A stretch of DNA of 64,000 nucleotides. Origin: Octopus vulgaris. Lineage: Eukaryota. Each line of letters starts with the position of its first letter. The stretch's first letter is position 1. The translations under genes and the position numbers were made by a program. The stretch is from contig OX597816.1 of NCBI GenBank assembly GCA_951406725.2, positions 112,158,001-112,222,000 on the forward strand, given 5' to 3'. Below are positions 8,309 through 40,763 of the stretch, piece by piece. The notes beneath the pieces are model-generated. The model had not been told where the DNA came from. It saw only the letters and a list, made by a program, of their open reading frames with translations, and made no database searches.

Positions 8309-8334
8309 AAGTAATAAAGTTAATATCTGGTCAT

Positions 8335-8396
8335 AGAGTGACCAATGGTTTCACATCGATGAAGGCTAAAGCCTCGCAGACATCTCATCAGACTCT
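8335..8396 (-). ncRNA. Type-I hammerhead ribozyme motif
   Basis: AGAGT-CTGATGA-[imperfect stem II]-GAAA-CCATTGG-TC-ACTCT; GUC cleavage triplet; stem I perfect. Confidence 0.75.
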
Positions 8397-8415
8397 AGTC
8401 TGAAGTGTTCAGACT

Positions 8416-8480
8416 AGAGTCTGATGAGATGTCTGCAAGGCTATAGCCTTTTGTGGATGAAAAAAACCATTGGTCACTCT
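8416..8480 (+). ncRNA. Type-I hammerhead motif, degenerate (A-run expansion at GAAA)
   Basis: AGAGT-CTGATGA-..-G(A)7-CCATTGG-TC-ACTCT. Confidence 0.6.
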
Positions 8481-8568
8481 GTGACCAGACATTAACTTTA
8501 GTGCTTTAATATTTTACTGCTCTATACTTCAGAGTGTACTTCTTGTGCGGATATATGATACATTGACG

Positions 8569-11589: not shown

Positions 11590-13807
11590 TTCCTTTTTAA
11601 AAAGCTGAGGCTTTATGCAAATAAAATTCAGAAGGCACTTAAAAACTTATCCTCCTTTCTTCAAATACACGGAAAGAGCCTCTCTAAAAATGAAATCGAC
11701 TATTTATTCAATTTTAAATACAGACCTAGTCTTTTCTATGGATTATCTAAAATACACAAAAATCTACATATTTATAAAGCTTGCAAAGTTTCTCCGAGCC
11801 TATGCATTAATATTCCTTCCCTTACTGACCTTAAACTGAGACCCATCATTGCTGGCCCTGCTTGTAAAACCCATCATTTGAGCAACTTCCTCAACATCTT
11901 ACTCAAACCATTTCTAAAATATGTGAAAAGCTTCATCAGGGATGACTTAGACATGCTTAACTACCTCCTGATGACAATTAATGAACGAACTGTTAGTATC
12001 ATTCGATGTGGTGAATTTGTACACCAATATCCCACACAATTATGGTATAGAACCTTCTGGCTAGAAAAATACCCAGAAGAGATCCCAGGACACATCAACC
12101 ACAGATTCATAATTGCAGCACTCAAATTCATCCTACTAAACAACTATTTCACGTGCGATACAGTTTACTATTGACAAAAATGTGGAATTGCAATGGGAAC
12201 CCGAGTTGCTCCAGTGATTGTGAACCTTGGAATGGGTTACCTAAGACTTAAAATATACCAATCATCACTACAAAAATATGGCACCTCATTTCATTGCTAT
12301 TTAAAGGAGAACTGGAAGAGGTATTTGGACGATTGCTTTATACGTTGGAAAGACAGCATGGACAAACTCCTCGATTTCAAAATAATGCTTAACAATATTG
12401 ATAGCAACGTATAATTCACCATGGAGCACAGCAGTAAACAACTCCCTTTTCTTGACATTCTAATTAAAATAGTCAATAACCACATCTAAACAGACATCTT
12501 CTATAAACCCACAGATTCTAAACAATACCTATTATTCAACTCATGCCACCCCAAACACATAAAAATTTATATACCTTATAATCTAGCAAAAAGAATCTGT
12601 ACCATAGTTTTGGACACCTATACTCATGAACAAAGACTCCTCAAAGTCAGATCAATACTAATCAAAAGACATTACCCAATATCATTAATAAATGATGGCA
12701 TTAAATGAGCTAAGAAAATAGATATACGAAAATTAACAGATGTCAACCAAAATACTACACCAGACTTAAAAATACTTCCATACATCTCCACACATAACCC
12801 TAGAAACAATGATGCCTTCAACATTATCCTCCAAAATCTACCCATCTCACAGGAGATAAAACAATGAACAACATTTTAGTCTCACACAAAATTATCAAAA
12901 GCAAAATGCAACCTAAATCATTGAAAAATTTATTAACCAGCACAAGACTATATCTATTAACAATGGAACCAAAAGTGAAAAAATGTGGTCAACTTACTGT
13001 GGTACATGCCCTCACCTTTTGGAGGGTTCAGAATTCCACTTTAGACAAGGTGAAATATTTAAGATTAAATCAAATTTCACCTGTGCTTCGGAAAATCTAA
13101 TCTATGCCATTACATGCCTAGGGTGTGGTAATCATTATATTGGCCAAAGAGAAACTTCACTCTGTCGAAGAACCACTCTCCACAAAGAACAAATCCGCCA
13201 CCCACAAAACAGACAGATTCAGGTCAGTGAACACATAGAAAGATGCGCTAGGAACCTTAACCCTAATTTCCTAATTTTCCCCTTCTATCAGTCCTCACAG
13301 AACACCTCAGTACAACAAAGAATGAATAAAGAGGCAACTTTCATCAATAAATATCTTCCGCAACTCAATATAAACACATAACTTAATACAGAAGACTACT
13401 AATCTTTCAATTAATACCACCCATACATCCCATACACCATTCACAGTACAGATCTATATCTACTCTAATTGCACCAAATCCAGAACTACTTACCTCCCTT
13501 ACACATAATCTTTTTACTCAGGGACTAATAGACCTGACACCGTTCATTAATCGGTGTGCATTCAAAGCAGTGATCGGTAATTTTACGAAACCGGTATGCT
13601 TTTGAATCTCTTTAACAATTCACAATAATGACTGTTATTACTTTTATTCCTACCTCAGTTCATCTAATTGTATATATCTATCGTTACTTTTCATAAAAAG
13701 CCTTTACTGATTTTGATTTCCAATGTGCATTTTCGCTTATTTTTCTTCTTACTTTCCCCTTACATTTCCACGTGTAGTTTCTATTTCTTTTTGTAACACA
13801 TTTCTAT

Positions 13808-18810: not shown

Positions 18811-19085
18811 GAAGGTGTGTGTTTGTGTGTGTATATGTGTGTGTGTGTATGTGTGTTGTTATTGTTGTTGTTGTTGTCATAAGCATTTATAAACTTTTAA
18901 GAGAATATGAAATAATTTGTTTTTGGAATGTTGGATCTTGAAGCAGAAAAGCTATAAATAATAATATATAAATATTGTCTTAAAATTTATTTACAAGGAA
19001 AAACCTGAAGGCTACCCTTGGAACTCAAGCCCATATCTCTAGTAAACACGACAATATTTACATGTCATTATTTATAGCTTATCAA

Positions 19086-19300
19086 GGTGGCAAGCAGGTA
19101 GAATTGTTAGCTTGCCTCTGAGCGTTTTGTTTGGCATTTCCTCCATCTTTAAATTCTGAGTTCAAATTGCACTGGTGACAACTTCCCCTTTCATCGTTTA
19201 GCGGTTGATAAATTAAGTCCCACTTGAGCACCCAGGTCGAGATAATCTACTAGGCCTCTCCCATGAAATTTCAGGCCTGGTGCCTATAGTAGAAAGAATT
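19086..19300 (+). mobile_element. Meta-domain SINE (left arm; mirror copy 23062-23278)
   Basis: TTCTGAGTTCAAATT..CCTTTCATC..GATAAATTAAGT..GCCTGGTGCCTATAGTAGAAAG. Confidence 0.75.
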
Positions 19301-19663
19301 ATTTAAATGCTTTTCTCGTTCAAGATTCATCAGTCAATAAAAAAAAATAGAAGAATTATCTCATATTCTCTTGAAGTTTATGAATTCTTATGATGTGAAC
19401 ACACAATTCTCACTGGTAATAATAATGTTTCTAAAATAAATAGAGAAACTGTAAGGATTGCTTTGATCCAATGGCTGAATGCCAGCTATATTTAAAGGGA
19501 TTCAAGACCCATGAGCAGCCTTTGACATTTTCTATCAAAGGTATTTTTAAGCCAATATTTACATGCAATTATTTATAGCTTATCTGCTCCAAATCCAATA
19601 CTCCAAAAAATAATATGCATGTGTGTTTATCTATATATCTCATACCTCCTGAATTTCTTTATA

Positions 19664-19708
<45 letters not shown>

Positions 19709-19759
19709 GTATATATACACACACACAGAAAAAGAAAATATATATATATGTATAAAATA

Positions 19760-20758
19760 ACAAAATGGGAGGAGAATTTTGATTATTCCTGCACAGTGAG
19801 ATGTAATGCAAAAACAAAATGTAACACCACACCTCATCTCAAAACACTACTGTTTATATCAACTCACAGCCCTAGACACAATGAGGCATACAACACTATT
19901 GTATAAAATCTACTTATGCTTCTTAAGGATCTAAAATTGAAGAACATTCTGAAAACATAAATTTAGCAAATGCAAAAAGCAACACAGATTGCTAAATAGA
20001 CTTCTGAAAAATGTAAAGCATTACATAAAAACCATGAAACCAGCAGTTACAAGATGTGGACGACAAAATCTGAGGAACATGCCCCCAACCTACTGGAAGA
20101 CTCAGAATTCCTGTTCAAAGAAGGAGGGAGGTTCACAATTAAAACCAAATTCACTTGTGCTTCCAAGAATCTAATTTATGTTATAACCTGTTCAGATTGT
20201 GAACATAACTATATAGGACAGACAAGTATGACACTGAGATAGAGAACCACACTACATAAGGAACAGATCTGGTTCTTGCAATACAGACAGATTCCTTTGA
20301 GTATCTACCAGTGCAAAGAAACAGTTTCTGTACAATAAAGTTTAAATAGAGACAATTTGTTCATTGGAAAATACAGAATAGTCTAAATATGAATGCATAA
20401 CCAACTTTGGTCTCAGTATATATTTTAATTCATGATCACATACTCATAATTGTACATATTTAATCTCACTACTTTAGTTTTAGTGTTTTTGTATTTATAT
20501 TTATCCCATCTCCAAAAGATGAGTAATTACCTCCCCCAGTTCCCAATAATAATGATCACCAATTACCACCCCTTAAATTTTTATACATGTTGAATCATTC
20601 ATTCACAAACATCTCTGCACAAAACATCTTCTTAAGATAATAAGAAATTACAATAATTTCAATGCCATGATTAGCAAAAGCAAAACTGGTCGACAGACAT
20701 AATACTCTTTCACTTATAAAATATATTAAAACTATGTAAACTATTTGCATTTTCCCTC

Positions 20759-20760
<2 letters not shown>
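19760..20760 (+). mobile_element. PLE 3' fragment (GIY-YIG plus pLTR), Neptune/Naiad-type
   Basis: FTIKTKFTCASKNLIYVITCSDCEHNYIGQTSMTLR, homologous to ORF 12983-13381. Confidence 0.85.
20663..20695 (+). ncRNA. Degenerate minimal hammerhead motif (core ATGATTA)
   Basis: TGCC-ATGATTA-GC(AAAA)GC-AAAA-CTGG-TC-GACA, at the same position in the PLE as the 13560 motif. Confidence 0.5.
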
Positions 20761-20804
<44 letters not shown>

Positions 20805-20808
<4 letters not shown>

Positions 20809-21107
20809 AATTGTAGCATGGAAAATGCTTTTAAGCCATTTAAAAACACACAAAAACCATCAGATTTACTTTAACATCTAAAATTAATTTGTGTCAAAAT
20901 GTTTTCGTCCCTTTGAAACCACGACCTGTTCACTGACAAAATTTCATGCCACAAGACGTTTTGTCAGTTCATGCCACCAGAAGTTTCGTTGCAATTTCAA
21001 AGCAACGAAAATAATTTGACACAAATTAAATTTATATGTTGAAGTGAATTTAGCAGTTTTTTGTGTTCTTAAATAGCTTATAAACATCTTCCATGTGGCA
21101 ATTGTTT
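20805..21107. mobile_element. Fold-back element with variant HHR motif in left arm
   Basis: About 110-bp imperfect inverted arms (AAACAATTG..CAATTGTTT), flanked by TA tracts. Confidence 0.75.
20892..20938 (-). ncRNA. Hammerhead-like motif with G3:C8 core and one extra nucleotide
   Basis: TGTCA-GTGAACA-G-GTC..GAC-GAAA-ACAT-TT-TGACA. Confidence 0.55.
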
Positions 21108-21111
21108 ATAT

Positions 21112-21345
21112 ACGTATATATTAGTATATTAGTATATAATATACTAATATATAATTATATAGATATAATTATGGTAAGGAATGCTGATAAACAACACCAA
21201 CATGATAGAGATGGATGCAAAATGGTGATAAAAACATCTTGGCATTATTTGATGTCTATCTATAGCATATTAGTGTTGTTTGTCAGCACCCTTTACTATA
21301 AATATATCTATATAATTATATATTAATATATATACTACTAATATA
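21112..21345. repeat. Second imperfect palindrome in the spacer; homologous to 18280-18380
   Basis: TATAATTATATAGATAT..GCTGATAAACAACAC vs GTGTTGTTTGTCAGCAC..ATATCTATATAATTATA. Confidence 0.75.
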
Positions 21346-21459
21346 GGATAAAATTATTTTTCAGAAAAATTTTCATCAAAAGTGGGAGAATATTAAAATA
21401 CCTTTAAAGGTTAAAATTATAAACAAGGGCAAAAGAAAAATTATTTATAAGTTATTAAT

Positions 21460-21494
<35 letters not shown>

Positions 21495-21499
<5 letters not shown>

Positions 21500-22575
21500 C
21501 AAGAAGGAATATGCACATAGTTTACATAGTTTTAATATATTTTTTTATATATTTTATAAGTGAAAGTGCATTAAGTTTGTTGGCCAGTTTCACTTTCACT
21601 CATCATGACATTAAAATTATTGTAATTTTGTATTTCATTAAGAAGATTTTAGTCCATGTTTTGCATGGAGACGTTTGTGAACAAATGATTCAACAAATAG
21701 AAAAATCTAATGGGAGGTAATTTGCAATCGTTATAATTGGGGACAGGTGAAGTAATTACTCATCTTTCAGAGAGGAGATAAATGTATATATACGAAAGCT
21801 CAAAATCTCAAGTAGTGAGATGAAATATGTACAATGATGGGTATGTGTTCATGAATTAAAATATATAGAGTGACCAAAGTTGGTTATGCATTCATATTTA
21901 GATGTGTTCTGCATTTTTCAATGAACAAATTTTCTCTGTAGAAATGTTCCTGTACAGAAATTGTTTCTTTGCACTAGTAGATGAGAAAAATTGTGAAATT
22001 TGGGTGGATATTACTTGCAAATCTCTCTATGGGTTGACTCAAAGGGACCCATCTGTATTGCAAGAACCAGATCTGTTCCTTATGTAGTGTGGTTCTCCAT
22101 CGCAGTGTCATACTTGTATTTCCTATATAATCATGTCCACAACCTGAACAGGCTATTACATAAATTAGATTCTTGGAAGCACAAGTGAATTTGGTTTTAA
22201 TTGTGAACATCGCTCCTTCTTTGAACAGGAATTCTAAGTCTTCCAGTAGGTTGGGGCATGTTTCTCAGATTTTGTCGTCCACATCTTTTAACTATTGGTT
22301 TTGTGGTTGTTCTGCAAAGCTTTGCATTTTTTTAGAAGTCTGTTTAGCAATTCATGTTGCTTTTTGCATTTGCTGAGTTTATGTGTTTTCAGAATGTTGT
22401 TCATTTTTAGATCCCTGTGAAGCATAGGTAGATTTTATACAATAGTGTTGTATGCCTCATTGTGTCTAGGGCTGTGAGTTGATATAAACAGTAGTGTTTT
22501 GAGATGAGGTGTGGTGTTACATTTTGCTTTTACATTACATCTCACCATGTGTGGATAATTGAAATTCTCCTCATC
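21495..22575 (-). mobile_element. PLE 3' fragment, mirror copy of 19760-20760
   Basis: ORF 21974-22210 FTIKTKFTCASKNLIYVIACSGCGHDYIG..LHKEQI; HHR remnant at 21578-21610. Confidence 0.85.
21578..21610 (-). ncRNA. Degenerate minimal hammerhead motif (core ATGATGA)
   Basis: TGTC-ATGATGA-GT(GAAA)GT-GAAA-CTGG-CC-AACA. Confidence 0.5.
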
Positions 22576-22623
22576 CCTATATATATATATATATATTATC
22601 TCCCTCTCAGTCTCTCTCCCTCT

Positions 22624-22673
<50 letters not shown>

Positions 22674-23494
22674 AAAATCAAGATGTATGATATATATAGA
22701 TAAACACACATATTCTTTTTTGGGATTATTAGATTTTGGAGCAGATAAGCTATAAATAATTGCATGTAAATATTGGCTTAAAAATACTTTTAATAGAAAA
22801 TGTCAAAGGCTGCTCATGGGACTTAAACTCCTGTAAATGTGGCTGGTATTCAACCATTGGATCAAAGCAATCCTTCAAATTTCTCTATTTATTTTAGAAA
22901 CATTATTATTACCAGAGAGAATTGTATGTTTGCATCATAAGAATTAATAAACTACAAGAGAATATGAGATAATTCTTTCGTGTTTATTTTAATTTCTTTC
23001 TTTCTTTATTTATTTTTTTGATTGATGGATCTTGAAGGAGAAGGAGAAAAGCATTTAAATAATCCTTTCTACAATAGGCACCAAGCCTGAAATTTTATGG
23101 AAGAGGGCTAGTCGATTATCTCGACCCAGGTGCTCAAGCAGAACTTAATTTATCAACCACAAAAAGATGAAAGGGGAAGTTGATACTAGTGAAATTTGAA
23201 CTCAAAATTTAAAGATGGAGGAAATGCCAAACAAAACGCTCAGAGGCAAGCTAACAATTCTACCTGCTTGCCACCTTGATAAGCTATAAATAATGACATG
23301 TAAATATTGTCATGTTTACCAGAGATATGGGCTTGAGTTCCAAGGGTAACCTTCAGGTTTTTCCATCTAAATAGATTTTCAAAGAATATTTATATGTTAT
23401 TATTTATAGCTTTTCTGCTTCAAGATCCAACATTCCAAAAATGAATTATTTCATATTCCCTTGAAAGTTTATAAATACTTATGATGTCAACAAG

Positions 23495-31935: not shown

Positions 31936-34473
31936 CAGGTCATCCCATAAGTTCTGTCCGAATTTTGGATAAAGAATACAAGTGATCAAATGTTATGTTT
32001 AATTGAAAGTTAATCATCAATGTACTTTCCCTGATTATCTATGACTTACTTTCATCTATTGACAAGCTTTTTAATCCCACCAATGTAAAACTCTTTTGGT
32101 TTCAAAGCGAAGAACTCTGAAATGTCAGGTTCGACCTCCTCCTGGCTTGCGAAAGTTAAGTCCCCCTAATAATTCTGTAAACTAAAAATTCTGAAGGAGT
32201 AAGGTCGGGAGAATAAGTTGGATGAAGAAATTTTTCCAAACCGACCTCTTCCATCTTCTGTGATGTGATCTTTGCAGTGTGGGGTTGCGCATTGTCCTGA
32301 TGAAACATCACTCGTTTTCGACTCACTAAAGCGGCTCTTTTTTCCTTCAAAGCCTTGTTCAAACGCTCTAATTGCTGACAGTAGACTTGAGCATTGATTG
32401 TTGCATTAGGTGGTAACAATATAAAGTGAATTACGCCTTTGCAATCGCACCAGATAGAGTAGAACCTTTTTCCCATGAAGTTCCCTTCTCGGTTGTGGTT
32501 GAGCATTTTCCCTTTTACCAAGCCACTCTTTACGACGTTTAACATTTCGATAGAAAATCCATTTTTCGTCACAAGTCTATCGAAAAAGGGTGAAATGAGT
32601 TTGCGAGAATGGAGAGAAGAGCAGATGTCAACTCGGGATTTGCGGTTGCTTTCGGACAATACATGAGGTACCTATTTTCCAAGTTTAGGAATCTTTCCAC
32701 GTTGTTGAAGATAACGATGAACTGTTGTATTGTTTGAAGTAAGCTTTATTGCCAATTCTTCAACTGATAATGACGGATTTTCTTCAAGTAATTCCTCAAG
32801 AAGCTTATCATCAAACTCAACTGGACATCCTATTCGATCTTCATCTTCAATTTTGAAAACGATCTCCTGCAAGTTCTTTCATTCAAGTACTTTCCCATAA
32901 ACTGAGTGTATGTTTCGAGTCACTTCGGCTGCAGAGTTACCTTTAATGTACTCATAAAGAATTATATGTGCCTTAAATGCTCCTTGGATACTTCCATATT
33001 GAAAGGGTTTTAATCAAAGCAATTTTAAGGTGTCCACGAAGTCTAGGTACATGGAATAAAATCATAACATAAACAAATATAAGAAATAATAATTTTCCTT
33101 TTTTACTTTTGTTTAAATTAAATAAAAAATATACTTTACTTTTCTAAATTTATTTGTTATTTTTTCTACAGATGATCGAATGATGGCTCTGTCTAAAGAA
33201 GAAAGAATCCCAGATCGAATGATGGACCTATCTAAAGAAGAAAGAATCGAGTTAGTATTATTAAGTGGACGAGAGGAATGGTCTTATCGCAAAATTGTAG
33301 AAGAATTTAATCTTCGACACCCTTATAGGCAACCTATTTTTTTTACTGCCGTCGGGAAATTGATCAAGAAATTTAAAGAAACGCGCAATGTTTTGGATAA
33401 ACCCCGTTCTAGTCGAACAAAGACTTCAGTTGAAACGAAAGAGGCTGTCATTGCTAAAGTTTCTGCTAGCCCAAAGAAATCACTTCGTCGGACATCCACG
33501 GTGTTAGGTGTTCCAAAACCAACCATCCACAAAATGCTGTTTGAGGAAAAGTTTCATCGATACAACCTACAGATATTGCATCACTTAAATGAAGACGACC
33601 CTGATATACGAATGTAGACGTGTGAATAGTTTTCAGATAAATTGGATGAAAATATCAATCTTACGAAAAACTCTGTGTTGTTCAGTGACAAAGCTACGTT
33701 TTACGTAAATGGTGAGGTCAACAGACAGAATCTTCTATACTGGTCTCGAGGCAATCCATATTGGATGGATCCATCTAAACAGCAAGGCAGCAAAAAGGTG
33801 ATGGTGTGGTGTGGTTTGTGGAAAGCTCATGTTCTAGGACCCTTCTTCATTGAACATGTAACGGATGAGACTTATGTAAACATATTGAGAGACAAATTAA
33901 TATCTCAAATTGAGCGCCTAGGCGGGGTCCTTCCGAATTGGTTTCAGCAGGATGGGCTTAATGACACTTTTCCTCACTGGATTGGAAGAAGGGCTCATAT
34001 GAAAAGGTCCCCTCGTTCACCAGACCTTTCTCCCCTTGATTTCTTTTTCTGGGGTATGTTGAAAGAGAAAGATTACAATAAAGATTACAGATTTAAAACA
34101 CATGAGAGAACGCATTACCAGTCAGTGTGCTTAAACTGATGGCAATGTAGACTTATTTAATCAAGTTCACCTGAATTTTGCAAGGTGCATCAAGTTATGC
34201 ATTGAAAAATTATGGAAATCACTTTCAAAATATTATTTATTAACATTATAATTAAATAAAATTGGTTTGTTTTAAAATATGTGTTAATCCCCATGTACGC
34301 AAACTTTGTGGATACCCTCTATTATTTTGTAAAACAATATTGAATTAGTTTAAACGTACACAAATTCATAAAAATAATATTTTATTGAATTAGACATTTG
34401 AAAATACTATTAAATTTCATTCAAATCTAAAAAAAAAAAAGGTAAAATTGGACAGAACTGATTGGATGACTTG
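31936..34473 (-). mobile_element. Decayed mariner with both TIRs, interrupted by a nested Tc1-like element
   Basis: TIRs CAGGTCATCCCATAAGTTCTGTCCGAATTTT and AAAATTGGACAGAACTGATTGGATGACTTG; ATG at 32997 (MEVSKEHLRHI), FHQDNAQPH, HPTYSPDLTPS. Confidence 0.92.
33027..34319 (+). mobile_element. Tc1/mariner-superfamily element (rosa/DD41D-like), pseudogenised
   Basis: TIRs GGTGTCCACGAAGTCTAGGTACATGG and CCATGTACGCAAACTTTGTGGATACC; FSDKATF, VMVWCG, WFQQDG, RSPDLSPLDFFFWG. Confidence 0.9.
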
Positions 34474-36275: not shown

Positions 36276-36339
<64 letters not shown>

Positions 36340-36340
<1 letters not shown>

Positions 36341-39150
36341 ACATACAAGCAATTCGAAACAAAAATATATCACATACAGAAATTTTACACACATCAAAAA
36401 CGAAAACAACCATAGATACTCACACACACACAACAATCTGAGGCAACAATACCACCGTTCCCCGGAACCAATATCACACAATCTCACAGACAACTCATAC
36501 AAACAAAATTGCACCCAACATTTTTTAGCCCGGGACCAGAGACACCAGGACACAGGCTGGAACCTAGTAATAACGAAAAACCGAAGATAATCAACCTTTC
36601 AGCCAAACCTCTCTCTAACATAAAAATTGACATCCTCTCAAAAGGACTCAAATTTACGCCAACTCCACGCAGAGCCAACCAAAATGAAGTCAAGGACAAT
36701 ATAACAGCATTATGCAGAAAATTAAGACTGGCAGAAGCATCAACCAGTTTCAATACTGAAGATGACTCACTAGTCAAAAACAAAAGTGAACACATCCCCC
36801 ACAGAGGAAGAAATAAAGATCTTGACGAGTTCTGCAGCCACATTGAGAACTTTCCCTACCATACTATACATAAACAGACAGTTAACTCAAATTTTAGCAC
36901 TGCACAGTGCAAGGAACTGATAGAACTTCAAAATGATGAAGATATAACCATTAAGGAAGCAGACAAAGGAAGTGCAATTGTAATAATGGATACTTTATAC
37001 TATAGAAATCTTGTAATTTCCTTGCTTGATGGCAATCAACATTATGAAAAAATCACCAACTACACCCCGCAAAAAATAATGAAAACTCCGTCCTCACTAA
37101 TTAAAACCCATGAAAAGGAACTGACAACCAAAGAGATCGACTGTCTAACAAACTTTAAATGCAAGCCTAGCCTCTTCTATGGTCTGCCAAAAATACACAA
37201 AAGCCAAATTATAAATGAAACCATTAAAAAATCACCAAAGACATACATACACACACCTAACCCGGGGGACCTAAAACTACGACCCATTGTAGCTGGCCCA
37301 CCTGTGAAACACACAGATTAAGTCTATTTATGGACATCTTTCTGAAACCCTTCCTTAAACACATCGATAGTCATATCAGAGATGACTTGGATATGTTAAA
37401 CCACCTTCCAAAAAAAGTCAAGGAAGAAACAATCATGGTTTCATTTGATGTAGTTAATTTATATACCAGTATACCTCATAATTATGGACTAGAGGAAATA
37501 CAGTTCTGGCTGGACCAATTTCCGGAAGAAATACCAAAAAGGATCAGTAAAGAATTCATTACTAAATCAATTGAATTCATCCTACAAAATAACCACTTCA
37601 TGTTTGACAATACGTTTTACCGTCAAAAATCCGGAATTGCTATGGGTACAAGGGCAGCACCAGTCATTGCGAACCTAACAATGGGCTACCTGGAAATAAT
37701 TATTTACCAGGAAACTTTATCGACCTTTGGAAACCCCCCTTTCTCAATACATAAAAGAGAATTGGAAAAGATTCCTGGACGATTGTTTTATACTCTGGAA
37801 TGAAAACACAGATAAACTCCTAAAATTCAAAAACCTATTGAACAGCATCAACCCAAATATACAGTTCACAATGGAGTACAACCAAAAGGAGCTTCCATTC
37901 TCAGATATACAGATTAAAAAAATTAACCTAAAAAGAGAAACACATTTTTTACAAAGCCACAGACGCCAAACAATACCTACTTTTCGATTCATGCCACCCA
38001 AGACACACTGAAACAAACATCACTTTCAACCTTGCAAGAAGGATATGCACAATAGTGTCAGAACAAAATACCAGGAACTTTAGACTACAAGAACTCAAAA
38101 ACACCCTAATTGACAGACACTACCCAGTTCAACTCATAGAGGATGGGATCAGGCGTGCAACAGAAATCGACATAGAAACTTTGAGAAAAGTTCAACACAG
38201 CAACACGCCTTCCCCGAAAATACTGTCTTACATATCCACATACAACCCCAGAAACAAAGAAGCCTTCACCATCATCCACCCAGAATTTACCAATACTTCA
38301 TAAGGACCCCAAATTAAAGGAAATTCTAAACATACACAAAATCATTAAAAGCTACAAACAACCTAAATCACTTAAAACGATTCTCACAAGGGCAAAATTG
38401 TTTTCTGAAATTACGGATGCAAAAGTAAAAAAATGTGGTAGACCAAACTGCGCAACATGCCCAAACCTTCTAGAAGGATCAGAATTCCTTTTCAAAGAGG
38501 GACAAAAATTCAAGATCAGATCTAATTTTAATTGTGCTTCTGAAAACACAATTTATGTCATAAGATGCTCGGGCTGCCACCAAAATTACGTAGAGTCCAC
38601 GGGATTATCACTTAGACGCATATGCACTCTGCATCGACAACAGATTGCATTCCCAGAATACAGAATGATACCCTTTAGTGAGCATATTGAGAAATGCGCA
38701 AAGCAACTACTACCACAATTTTTAATCTTTCCATTCTATCAATGTGCTATTGGAACACCAAATTAGATTAAACAAGGAAACATTCTTCATTGAAAAATAT
38801 AAGCCTGAACTTAACCATCCTAACATCCTTATACAGAGAAACTCATCTCATTAAAAAAGGGGAAAAGAAATATAAAGCGATTATCTCCCTTATACCGGAA
38901 GAAATCCCTTATTACCTCACTTGCCTGGAACTTTTCTTTGCACTTCATAACAAAAACATGACACGATGTAGGTAAAGACATTTGAGTAATTTGAAAAGTT
39001 AACACGAAACCGGTAGTTTCTCCAGAAACTATGTTACTATTTGCAAAATTTTATAACATTTTTCTAACATAACGACTTAAATATATTCTTTAACCTTATA
39101 ACACAAGCCTTCTGTAGTTTTTTTCACTCTTTTCTATTTTCTATATATAC
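36340..39150 (+). mobile_element. Nearly full-length, frameshifted Penelope-like element (Neptune/Naiad-type) in (TA)n
   Basis: IINLS..LSKGLKFTPTP, ITIKEADKGSAIVIMD, FYGLPKIHK, VSFDVVNLYTSIPH, GIAMGT, RFLDDCF, CGRPNCATC, IYVIRCSGC; HHR at 38984. Confidence 0.95.
38984..39022 (+). ncRNA. Minimal hammerhead motif with U3:A8 core
   Basis: GAGTAAT-TTGAAAA-GT(TAAC)AC-GAAA-CCGG-TA-GTTTCTC. Confidence 0.65.
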
Positions 39151-39210
39151 AAAGACGTGCTTTCACACACAACTTTCTCACCTATATATACATATATATA
39201 TTTATATATA

Positions 39211-39770
39211 CCCAAGAAAAAAGTAACAAGAATGGATCAGTAGTTTAGTACAATTGTTTCATACTAAGAACATTTTATTTAAAGCTGCAAAGAGATGTGA
39301 ACTGAACCGGTGTGTGAACAACATCTTTCCTCATGTCTCCTGGAATTTATATTTGCATCTTTATGGATGGACCTACCTTCTCTGAGAAGTTATTAATCTT
39401 TTTAAAAAATTTTTAAAAACTGTGCATTGTTGGAAAACATATAGAGTCTGCTTATAAACTTACTTCAAATTCATAGAACTCACTCCTTATACTTCATAAG
39501 GATATTTACACTCTCTAGGGTGTTTGGAAAACATATATATGATTTAGCTGATGAATACTTGACATTATATTTGCTGTAATAATTGCAGCTTTAAATAAAA
39601 TGTTCTGAGTATGAAACAATTGTACTAAACTACTGATCCATTCTTGTTACTTTTTTCTTAGTTATAATCACCCCACATATTTTTATGGTTAATACCATAA
39701 AGAATTCTGGTGCATCTACTATATTCATTTCAATTCATTTGAATTCATTTGAATCTTAATTGTTTTGGTG
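39211..39770 (+). mobile_element. Non-coding pLTR-type element with a 77-bp inverted 5' copy
   Basis: 39214-39290 is the reverse complement of 39583-39659 (one mismatch); flanked by TA tracts; contains an HHR. Confidence 0.8.
39543..39629 (+). ncRNA. Type-I hammerhead ribozyme motif, canonical core
   Basis: TTTAG-CTGATGA-ATACT..AGTAT-GAAA-CAATTG-TA-CTAAA. Confidence 0.88.
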
Positions 39771-40204: not shown

Positions 40205-40246
40205 TTATATATATATATTTATATATATATATATATATATGTATAA

Positions 40247-40631
40247 AAGGGACATTAGCCAACTGAATATGGCTAGGGACAGGGCAGGGTGGTGGGGGTG
40301 TCACTGTTGCATTTAGCCCCAGGCGAACATCAACGTCACCAGATAGGCCGACGCCATCACGGCGTCCTCTATCTTGCAAAGGGAGATCATTCCCCAAGAA
40401 GCGGATGCCACACACGGACCTAGGTTTCAAGGTGTATTGCCTATTATCAACGTCTGGTAGGCACCGCTTCTCGACGAACGACTCACCGTGCAAGATATAT
40501 ATAAAGATTTTCAAGTAATGATGGCGTCGGCCTATCTGGTGACGTTGATGTTCGCCTGGGGCTAAATGCAACAGTGACACCCCCACCACCCTGCCCTGTC
40601 CCTAGCCATATTCAGTTGGCTAATGTCCCTT
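40247..40631. mobile_element. Young MITE/fold-back element with 113-bp perfect inverted arms
   Basis: 40247-40359 is the reverse complement of 40519-40631; 159-bp spacer; TA-rich flanks. Confidence 0.85.
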
Positions 40632-40763
40632 ATATTATGGAGCAGTCACTGTCTATATCTCATTTAGAGAATTATTATTGCTATATATATGTATTTATAT
40701 ATTTATTTATATATATGTATTTATATATTTATTTATATATATGTATTTATATATCTATTTATA

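Follow-up and report, generated by a model that had tools for sequence, protein, structure and literature searches.

In the hammerhead ribozyme, G8 pairs with C3 and lends its 2'-hydroxyl as the general acid of cleavage (PMC11300833). A small motif on the plus strand of an Octopus vulgaris contig, at 38984-39022 of the 64,000-nucleotide stretch analysed here (the window), carries A at position 8 and U at position 3. This raises the question of whether the U3:A8 pair belongs to the family of elements in which the motif resides or merely to one decaying copy, and whether a hammerhead built around it would still cut RNA. Read from the sequence, the 5' strand of stem I (38984-38990) leads into the core U3 U4 G5 A6 A7 A8 A9 (UUGAAAA, 38991-38997; U3 at 38991, A8 at 38996), followed by a very short stem II (38998-39005) in which G10.1-C11.1 and a U-A pair close the loop UAAC, or alternatively a single pair closes a loop of 6 nt. 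The segment 39006-39015 supplies G12 A13 A14, the stem III palindrome ACCGGU (39009-39014), of a kind that permits a dimer, and N17 at 39015; the 3' strand of stem I then runs through 39016-39025, a possible 2-bp distal extension included. The motif fits the minimal core described for Penelope-like elements (PLEs): a Watson-Crick 3:8 pair and G12 A13 A14 are present, A39009 and U39014 provide A15.1:U16.1, N17 is A or U and not G, and both stems form, with six of the seven stem I positions paired to 39016-39022 in the window copy and all seven when the majority letters of the family are used. Cleavage is predicted 3' of 39015, after the GUA triplet at 39013-39015.

The motif sits behind the endonuclease of a PLE, here called element A (36338-39149, plus strand), which has (TA)n on both sides, five frameshifts and no 5' pLTR copy. 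Its reading frames hold an RVT_1 match (E 2.5e-5), a DKG motif, a CX4CXXC linker and, C-terminally, a GIY-YIG-type endonuclease, and the 24 residues from the linker to the next Cys correspond, in a by-eye comparison with the supplementary alignment of PMC8557442, to the long Neptune spacer and not to the short Nematis one. Element A shares with the Neptune clade, as characterised in that paper, the succession of reverse transcriptase (RT), CX2-5CxxC linker and C-terminal GIY-YIG domain, the DKG motif, a microsatellite target and a 3' hammerhead; unlike intact Neptune elements it is broken, lacks the 5' repeat, and is assigned by features and not by a tree. Judged by domain order, DKG and linker, it is a Neptune-type element. 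The initial annotation had left the choice between Neptune and Naiad open, and only the first name stands: Naiads have an N-terminal endonuclease, a DKA motif (Craig et al. 2021, PMC8557442) and no canonical hammerhead, whereas the endonuclease here is C-terminal and the motif DKG. The two best protein matches, at 58% and 77% identity, are to proteins of Octopus species, with bivalve proteins among the next, and the richness of the sequence in microsatellites is likewise in keeping with an octopus. Described earlier as the best preserved of three related PLEs, element A is indeed the most complete of them, but with its five frameshifts hardly intact. Within the window we found neither a second copy of its 3' end nor a 5' repeat with a second hammerhead; given the frameshifts, the missing partner hammerhead and two private changes in stem I, the genomic copy itself is likely dead. 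Directly downstream lies a pair of 84-nt inverted repeats (39207-39290 and 39583-39666, 96% alike) that probably mark the two termini of a short DNA transposon.

A descriptor that called for Watson-Crick pairing of position 3 with position 8, two or more base pairs in stem II, three in stem I and a palindrome in stem III matched four places in the 64-kb window (13570 and 38991 on the plus strand, 40450 and 8391 on the minus strand), against 0.145 matches per shuffle; in 200 block shuffles the count never exceeded two in any shuffled window. Rfam returned two matches for 38900-39120 at E up to 10, neither to a hammerhead model, and no hammerhead stood among the best 150 of the 182 matches for the whole window. 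Exact patterns of the motifs of element A and its relative, element B, gave no matches in viral contigs. For the window copy of element A, no hammerhead fold was predicted (z = 0.09): stems I and II together evaluate to +1.5 kcal/mol, and in the predicted minimum of the dimer the two copies are joined by GUUAAC, the palindrome of stem II, and not by stem III.

The state of the family was read from contigs of four public runs (four studies, four organism labels), compared with 38820-39160 at 80% likeness; the runs contributed 1151, 1266, 782 and 470 contigs. Depth in such contigs is not copy number, rare variants are dropped during assembly, and a threshold of 80% selects for close relatives, limits that apply to all family frequencies given here. 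Among 40 of the 43 rows of differences at 10% or more, none fell within 38988-39014 in any of the four runs. In each run, rows of this list at other positions account for every T>C (4, 3, 4 and 3 in the four runs) and every A>G (3, 3, 5 and 5), which leaves neither C at 38991 nor G at 38996 for the remaining three rows. By itself the variant-free stretch of 27 nt is not significant, as about two variants would be expected there by an estimate from the flanks. All four runs pass into (TA)n at 39149, as the window copy does.

These contigs bear directly on the idea, raised as a caveat in the initial annotation, that U3 and A8 are two ordinary private transitions in a decayed copy of a canonical C3:G8 family. 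The copy in the window is clearly worn: of the 133 positions between 38928 and 39060, nine depart from what most reads show, seven of them by transitions, and such wear is what the idea draws on. Yet neither C at 38991 nor G at 38996 reaches 10% in the four runs, whereas true private changes only 4 and 20 nt away stand out at above 99%: at 38987 the family has A where the copy has T in more than 99% of depth (73906/74077 in run X1; 60, 45, 32 and 24 contigs), and at 39016 it likewise has A in more than 99% (12442/12500); at 39025 A is found in more than 98%. Barring a bias of the reads towards one subfamily, the contigs refute private mutation, to which we assign a negligible probability, and U3:A8 is the family state of element A. 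The consensus check proposed in advance for this element thus returned a non-canonical core throughout the four runs.

The same contigs repair stem I. A at 38987 closes the mismatch of the window copy, and A at 39016 and 39025 turn G.U pairs into Watson-Crick ones, giving a perfect 7-bp stem in the family. N17 is polymorphic, A or U (28-53% U), with G staying below 10%; position 39022 is C or U, so that 23-46% have G.U in place of G-C and pairing with G38984 is kept. Both polymorphisms within the motif fit the hammerhead structure. Fixation of U3:A8 in a high-copy family, together with variation that preserves structure, offers comparative support for selection on the 3:8 pair in PLE hammerheads. 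Two further groups appeared among the contigs: loose ends at 39026-39045 belong to a sister subfamily with the tail GUAA in place of GUUA, and another group departs from element A at 39123.

A U3:A8 core in a minimal PLE hammerhead is in itself not new: as early as 2014, Cervera and De la Pena (PMC4209133) described U3-A8 in some 1,300 PLE hammerhead motifs of S. mansoni, and their S. mansoni(4) example carries the very core UUGAAAA. With the minimal hammerhead of the S. mansoni element Cercyon, the motif described here shares the type I layout in the 3' repeat, the palindromic stem III, G10.1-C11.1 and U3-A8. It differs in that stem II has 2 bp and no extra base follows A9, where the S. mansoni motifs have 7-8 bp and in most cases such a base, and in its longer stem I (7 bp), its 6-nt stem III palindrome and its Neptune-type host; the table and alignment of that study include no cephalopod. 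Natural hammerheads with U3/A8, among them several examples of C3-G8 covarying to U3-A8, were also described by Perreault et al. (2011, PMC3088659), who found stems II of two pairs to be common; both features recur in element A, and their section on core variants places none of them on PLEs and names no natural G3-C8 or A3-U8. What sets the present motif apart is the cephalopod Neptune host, the very short stem II and the absence of an extra base after A9. A family with this core would escape searches for CUGANGA, and its addition is a modest gain given that the variant had already been published.

Two relatives of element A in the window, elements B and C, carry other letters at positions 3 and 8. 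The cores first noted, UUGAAAA at 38991, GUGAUCG at 13570 and AUGAUUA at 20667, are all present as described, and the three elements proved to be related PLE remnants with about 65% to 73% nucleotide identity in local matches (A-B about 65% over 1.3-1.4 kb, A-C 68-73%, B-C 66-67%). Over the aligned endonuclease region, B and C are relatives at 59-63% nucleotide identity. Element B can be aligned from about 11630, and element C lies at 19769-20758, mirrored at 22572-21503. A shared GAAA-CYGG-UH architecture had been proposed for all three and is found in A and B, but not in C, whose plus arm reads AAAA-CUGG-UC and whose mirror arm reads GAAA-CUGG-CC.

The hammerhead of element B (13560-13607, plus strand) stands at the homologous place behind the endonuclease and combines the core GUGAUCG, with G3:C8 and with G in place of A at position 9, with a stem I of ten pairs and one bulge and the same stem III, ACCGGU. 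Although only a single copy is available, we consider G3:C8 to be probably the family state of element B, as two matching private transversions are unlikely (C/G mismatches make up 3 of the 124 between the arms of element C, over 988 columns). If true, this would matter more than the U:A pair. The largest set of PLE hammerheads is reportedly that of Lunse et al. 2017. In the literature searched, no natural G3-C8 or A3-U8 hammerhead was found, though that set and the study by Przybilski and Hammann (2007) may include them, and G3:C8 occurs solely as an engineered partial rescue: in a PLE hammerhead assayed in vitro, single mutants at position 3 or 8 abolish cleavage, and G3:C8 partly restores it (PMC11167929).

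Element C is a more doubtful case. It is contained in a 4.6-kb inverted duplication (18868-23493, arms about 87-92% alike outside gaps, centre near 20950) in which the decayed element is doubled in tail-to-tail orientation, flanking repeats included. Its plus arm (20662-20700) has the core AUGAUUA and no G12, and the mirror arm (21573-21611, minus strand) reads AUGAUGA at 21606, with an A3/G8 mismatch and no UH; neither matches the descriptor. The motif at 20667 is thus rejected as an intact GAAA-CYGG-UH motif, and the doubt about A:U voiced over its mirror copy was well founded. The two arms of the element are 89.5% identical, and the same stop codon and the same degenerate zinc linker occur in both, so that decay predates the duplication and A3 may be an older private change. 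In favour of A3:U8 is the shorter path, a single change of U8 to G in the mirror. Against it, the mirror tail can pair with positions 6-12 of the core within a 13-bp helix in which a U faces position 8, fitting G8 or A8 and not U8. This helix (21558-21603, minus strand; z -3.9), formed by the core and stem II with the downstream tail, would block the hammerhead fold. The polarised differences between the arms contain no G>T or T>G among 30 changes and give no rate basis for choosing between A3:U8 and A3/G8. On balance we regard A3:U8 as a rather doubtful family state of element C.

The direction of change was sought in more distant loci. Protein-based scans recovered one locus in metagenome contigs and two in genome contigs, and none in viral contigs. 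At the matching position, L001, whose endonuclease is 40% identical, reads CUGAUGA with GAAA-GCGC-UA, and a GAAA-palindrome-UA layout behind the endonuclease is common to A, B and L001; L002 has CUGACGA twice and L003 has CUGAAGA, this canonical motif and the RT match lying on opposite strands. One further weak U:A-like match of L003 falls in an A/T-rich stretch and was taken as chance. All three outgroup loci carry C3:G8, which suggests that C:G is the ancestral state of the pair. L002 and L003 come from a single record labelled as a bacterial metagenome-assembled genome; both contigs carry Penelope-like RTs with hammerheads of canonical type and probably represent animal DNA binned along with it.

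The reading we consider likely is that the motif is a minimal type I hammerhead at the 3' end of a high-copy Neptune-type PLE family, with U3:A8 as the core pair of the family, and that it cuts RNA as a dimer in active tandem elements. Two repeats on one tandem transcript would pair through the ACCGGU palindrome, each paired core would fold with U3:A8, and the RNA would be cut after GUA at 39013-39015, the role of the reaction presumably being the trimming of the element transcript. The U:A core would have arisen from C:G in this lineage. According to the literature it is the 2'-hydroxyl of position 8 that acts, with a partner at position 3 needed, so that a swap to U:A is tolerated.

An inherited fold that is nearly inert, retained for protein binding or priming, or simply carried along, with U3:A8 reflecting relaxed selection on cleavage, would account for several observations as well. 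Minimal PLE hammerheads cleave poorly in vitro, not at all as monomers and weakly as dimers (PMC4209133); in the only PLE tested in vitro, an element of Anolis, hammerhead cleavage needed protein and insertion was unaffected by catalytic mutants, cleavage being dispensable for it (PMC11167929). The cores also differ among the three sister elements, and B has G9. Relaxed selection sits poorly, however, with the complementarity of positions 3 and 8 in A, in B and in the 40450 motif, with N17 varying solely within the permitted letters, and with the perfect stem I of the family, and we consider near-inertness improbable next to a cleaving dimer. Sister families with different cores would provide a natural experiment on whether the spread of PLEs is influenced by cleavage.

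A further possibility, compatible with cleavage as a dimer, is a pseudoknot in which the short loop II pairs with a stretch of the 3' tail lying 17-21 nt beyond the cleavage site, either speeding cleavage or, as an alternative helix, switching it off after transcription. In element A the tail UGUUA (39032-39036) is complementary to loop II, and A, B and C each have a tail that matches their own loop II over at least 4 bases at this distance. The match is 5 nt in A (p 0.03-0.06) and 6 nt in the mirror arm of C (p about 0.01), where the 13-bp helix between core and tail would add to the case, and pseudoknots with stems II of 1-2 bp are known (PMC11300833, PMC3088659); as in those, G10.1-C11.1 closes a short loop able to pair elsewhere. 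Against this, the matches in B (p 0.4-0.7) and in the plus arm of C (p about 0.3) are not significant, the loop of B fits the tail of C better than its own, the duplex energies for A give p 0.15, L001 has no match, and the test was picked post hoc. The known pseudoknotted form relies on an additional stem-loop attached to helix I; the present pairing would involve the 3' tail, is weak and finds no support in element B. We treat the pseudoknot as a lead of low, though not trivial, probability.

More improbable still is the widest reading, in which an ancestral C:G was swapped repeatedly to U:A, G:C and A:U as true family states in sister octopus Neptune subfamilies, alongside a covarying pseudoknot between loop II and the 3' tail. 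If true, a single lineage of retroelements would hold the full natural set of four Watson-Crick cores. The initial annotation had already counted all four combinations in the window: U:A in element A, G:C in the single copy of B, and C:G at 8391 are there, but A:U rests on one decayed arm of C, and C:G comes from an unrelated element.

That C:G hammerhead lies in a head-to-head fold-back at 8330-8485, between (TG)n tracts, with two canonical CUGAUGA arms, the one at 8391 (minus strand) intact and the one at 8421 (plus strand) decayed at GAAA. The arm at 8391 has C3:G8, a 32-nt helix II domain and a near-palindromic stem III, and no Neptune reading frame lies beside it.

A second candidate hammerhead with U3:A8 occupies 40402-40466 on the minus strand, in one copy, with the core UUGAUAA at 40450 and a GUC triplet. 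It has the 8-nt palindrome ACCUAGGU and a long stem I interrupted by an internal loop (z -3.9 for the fold), and is contained in a fold-back (40243-40635) set in (TA)n and unrelated to the Neptune elements, for which no family of reading frames was found. Elsewhere in the window, remnants of Tc1/mariner-type transposases, with matches to Transposase_1, DDE_3 and HTH_32, lie at 32156-32671 (minus strand) and 33126-33617 (plus strand).
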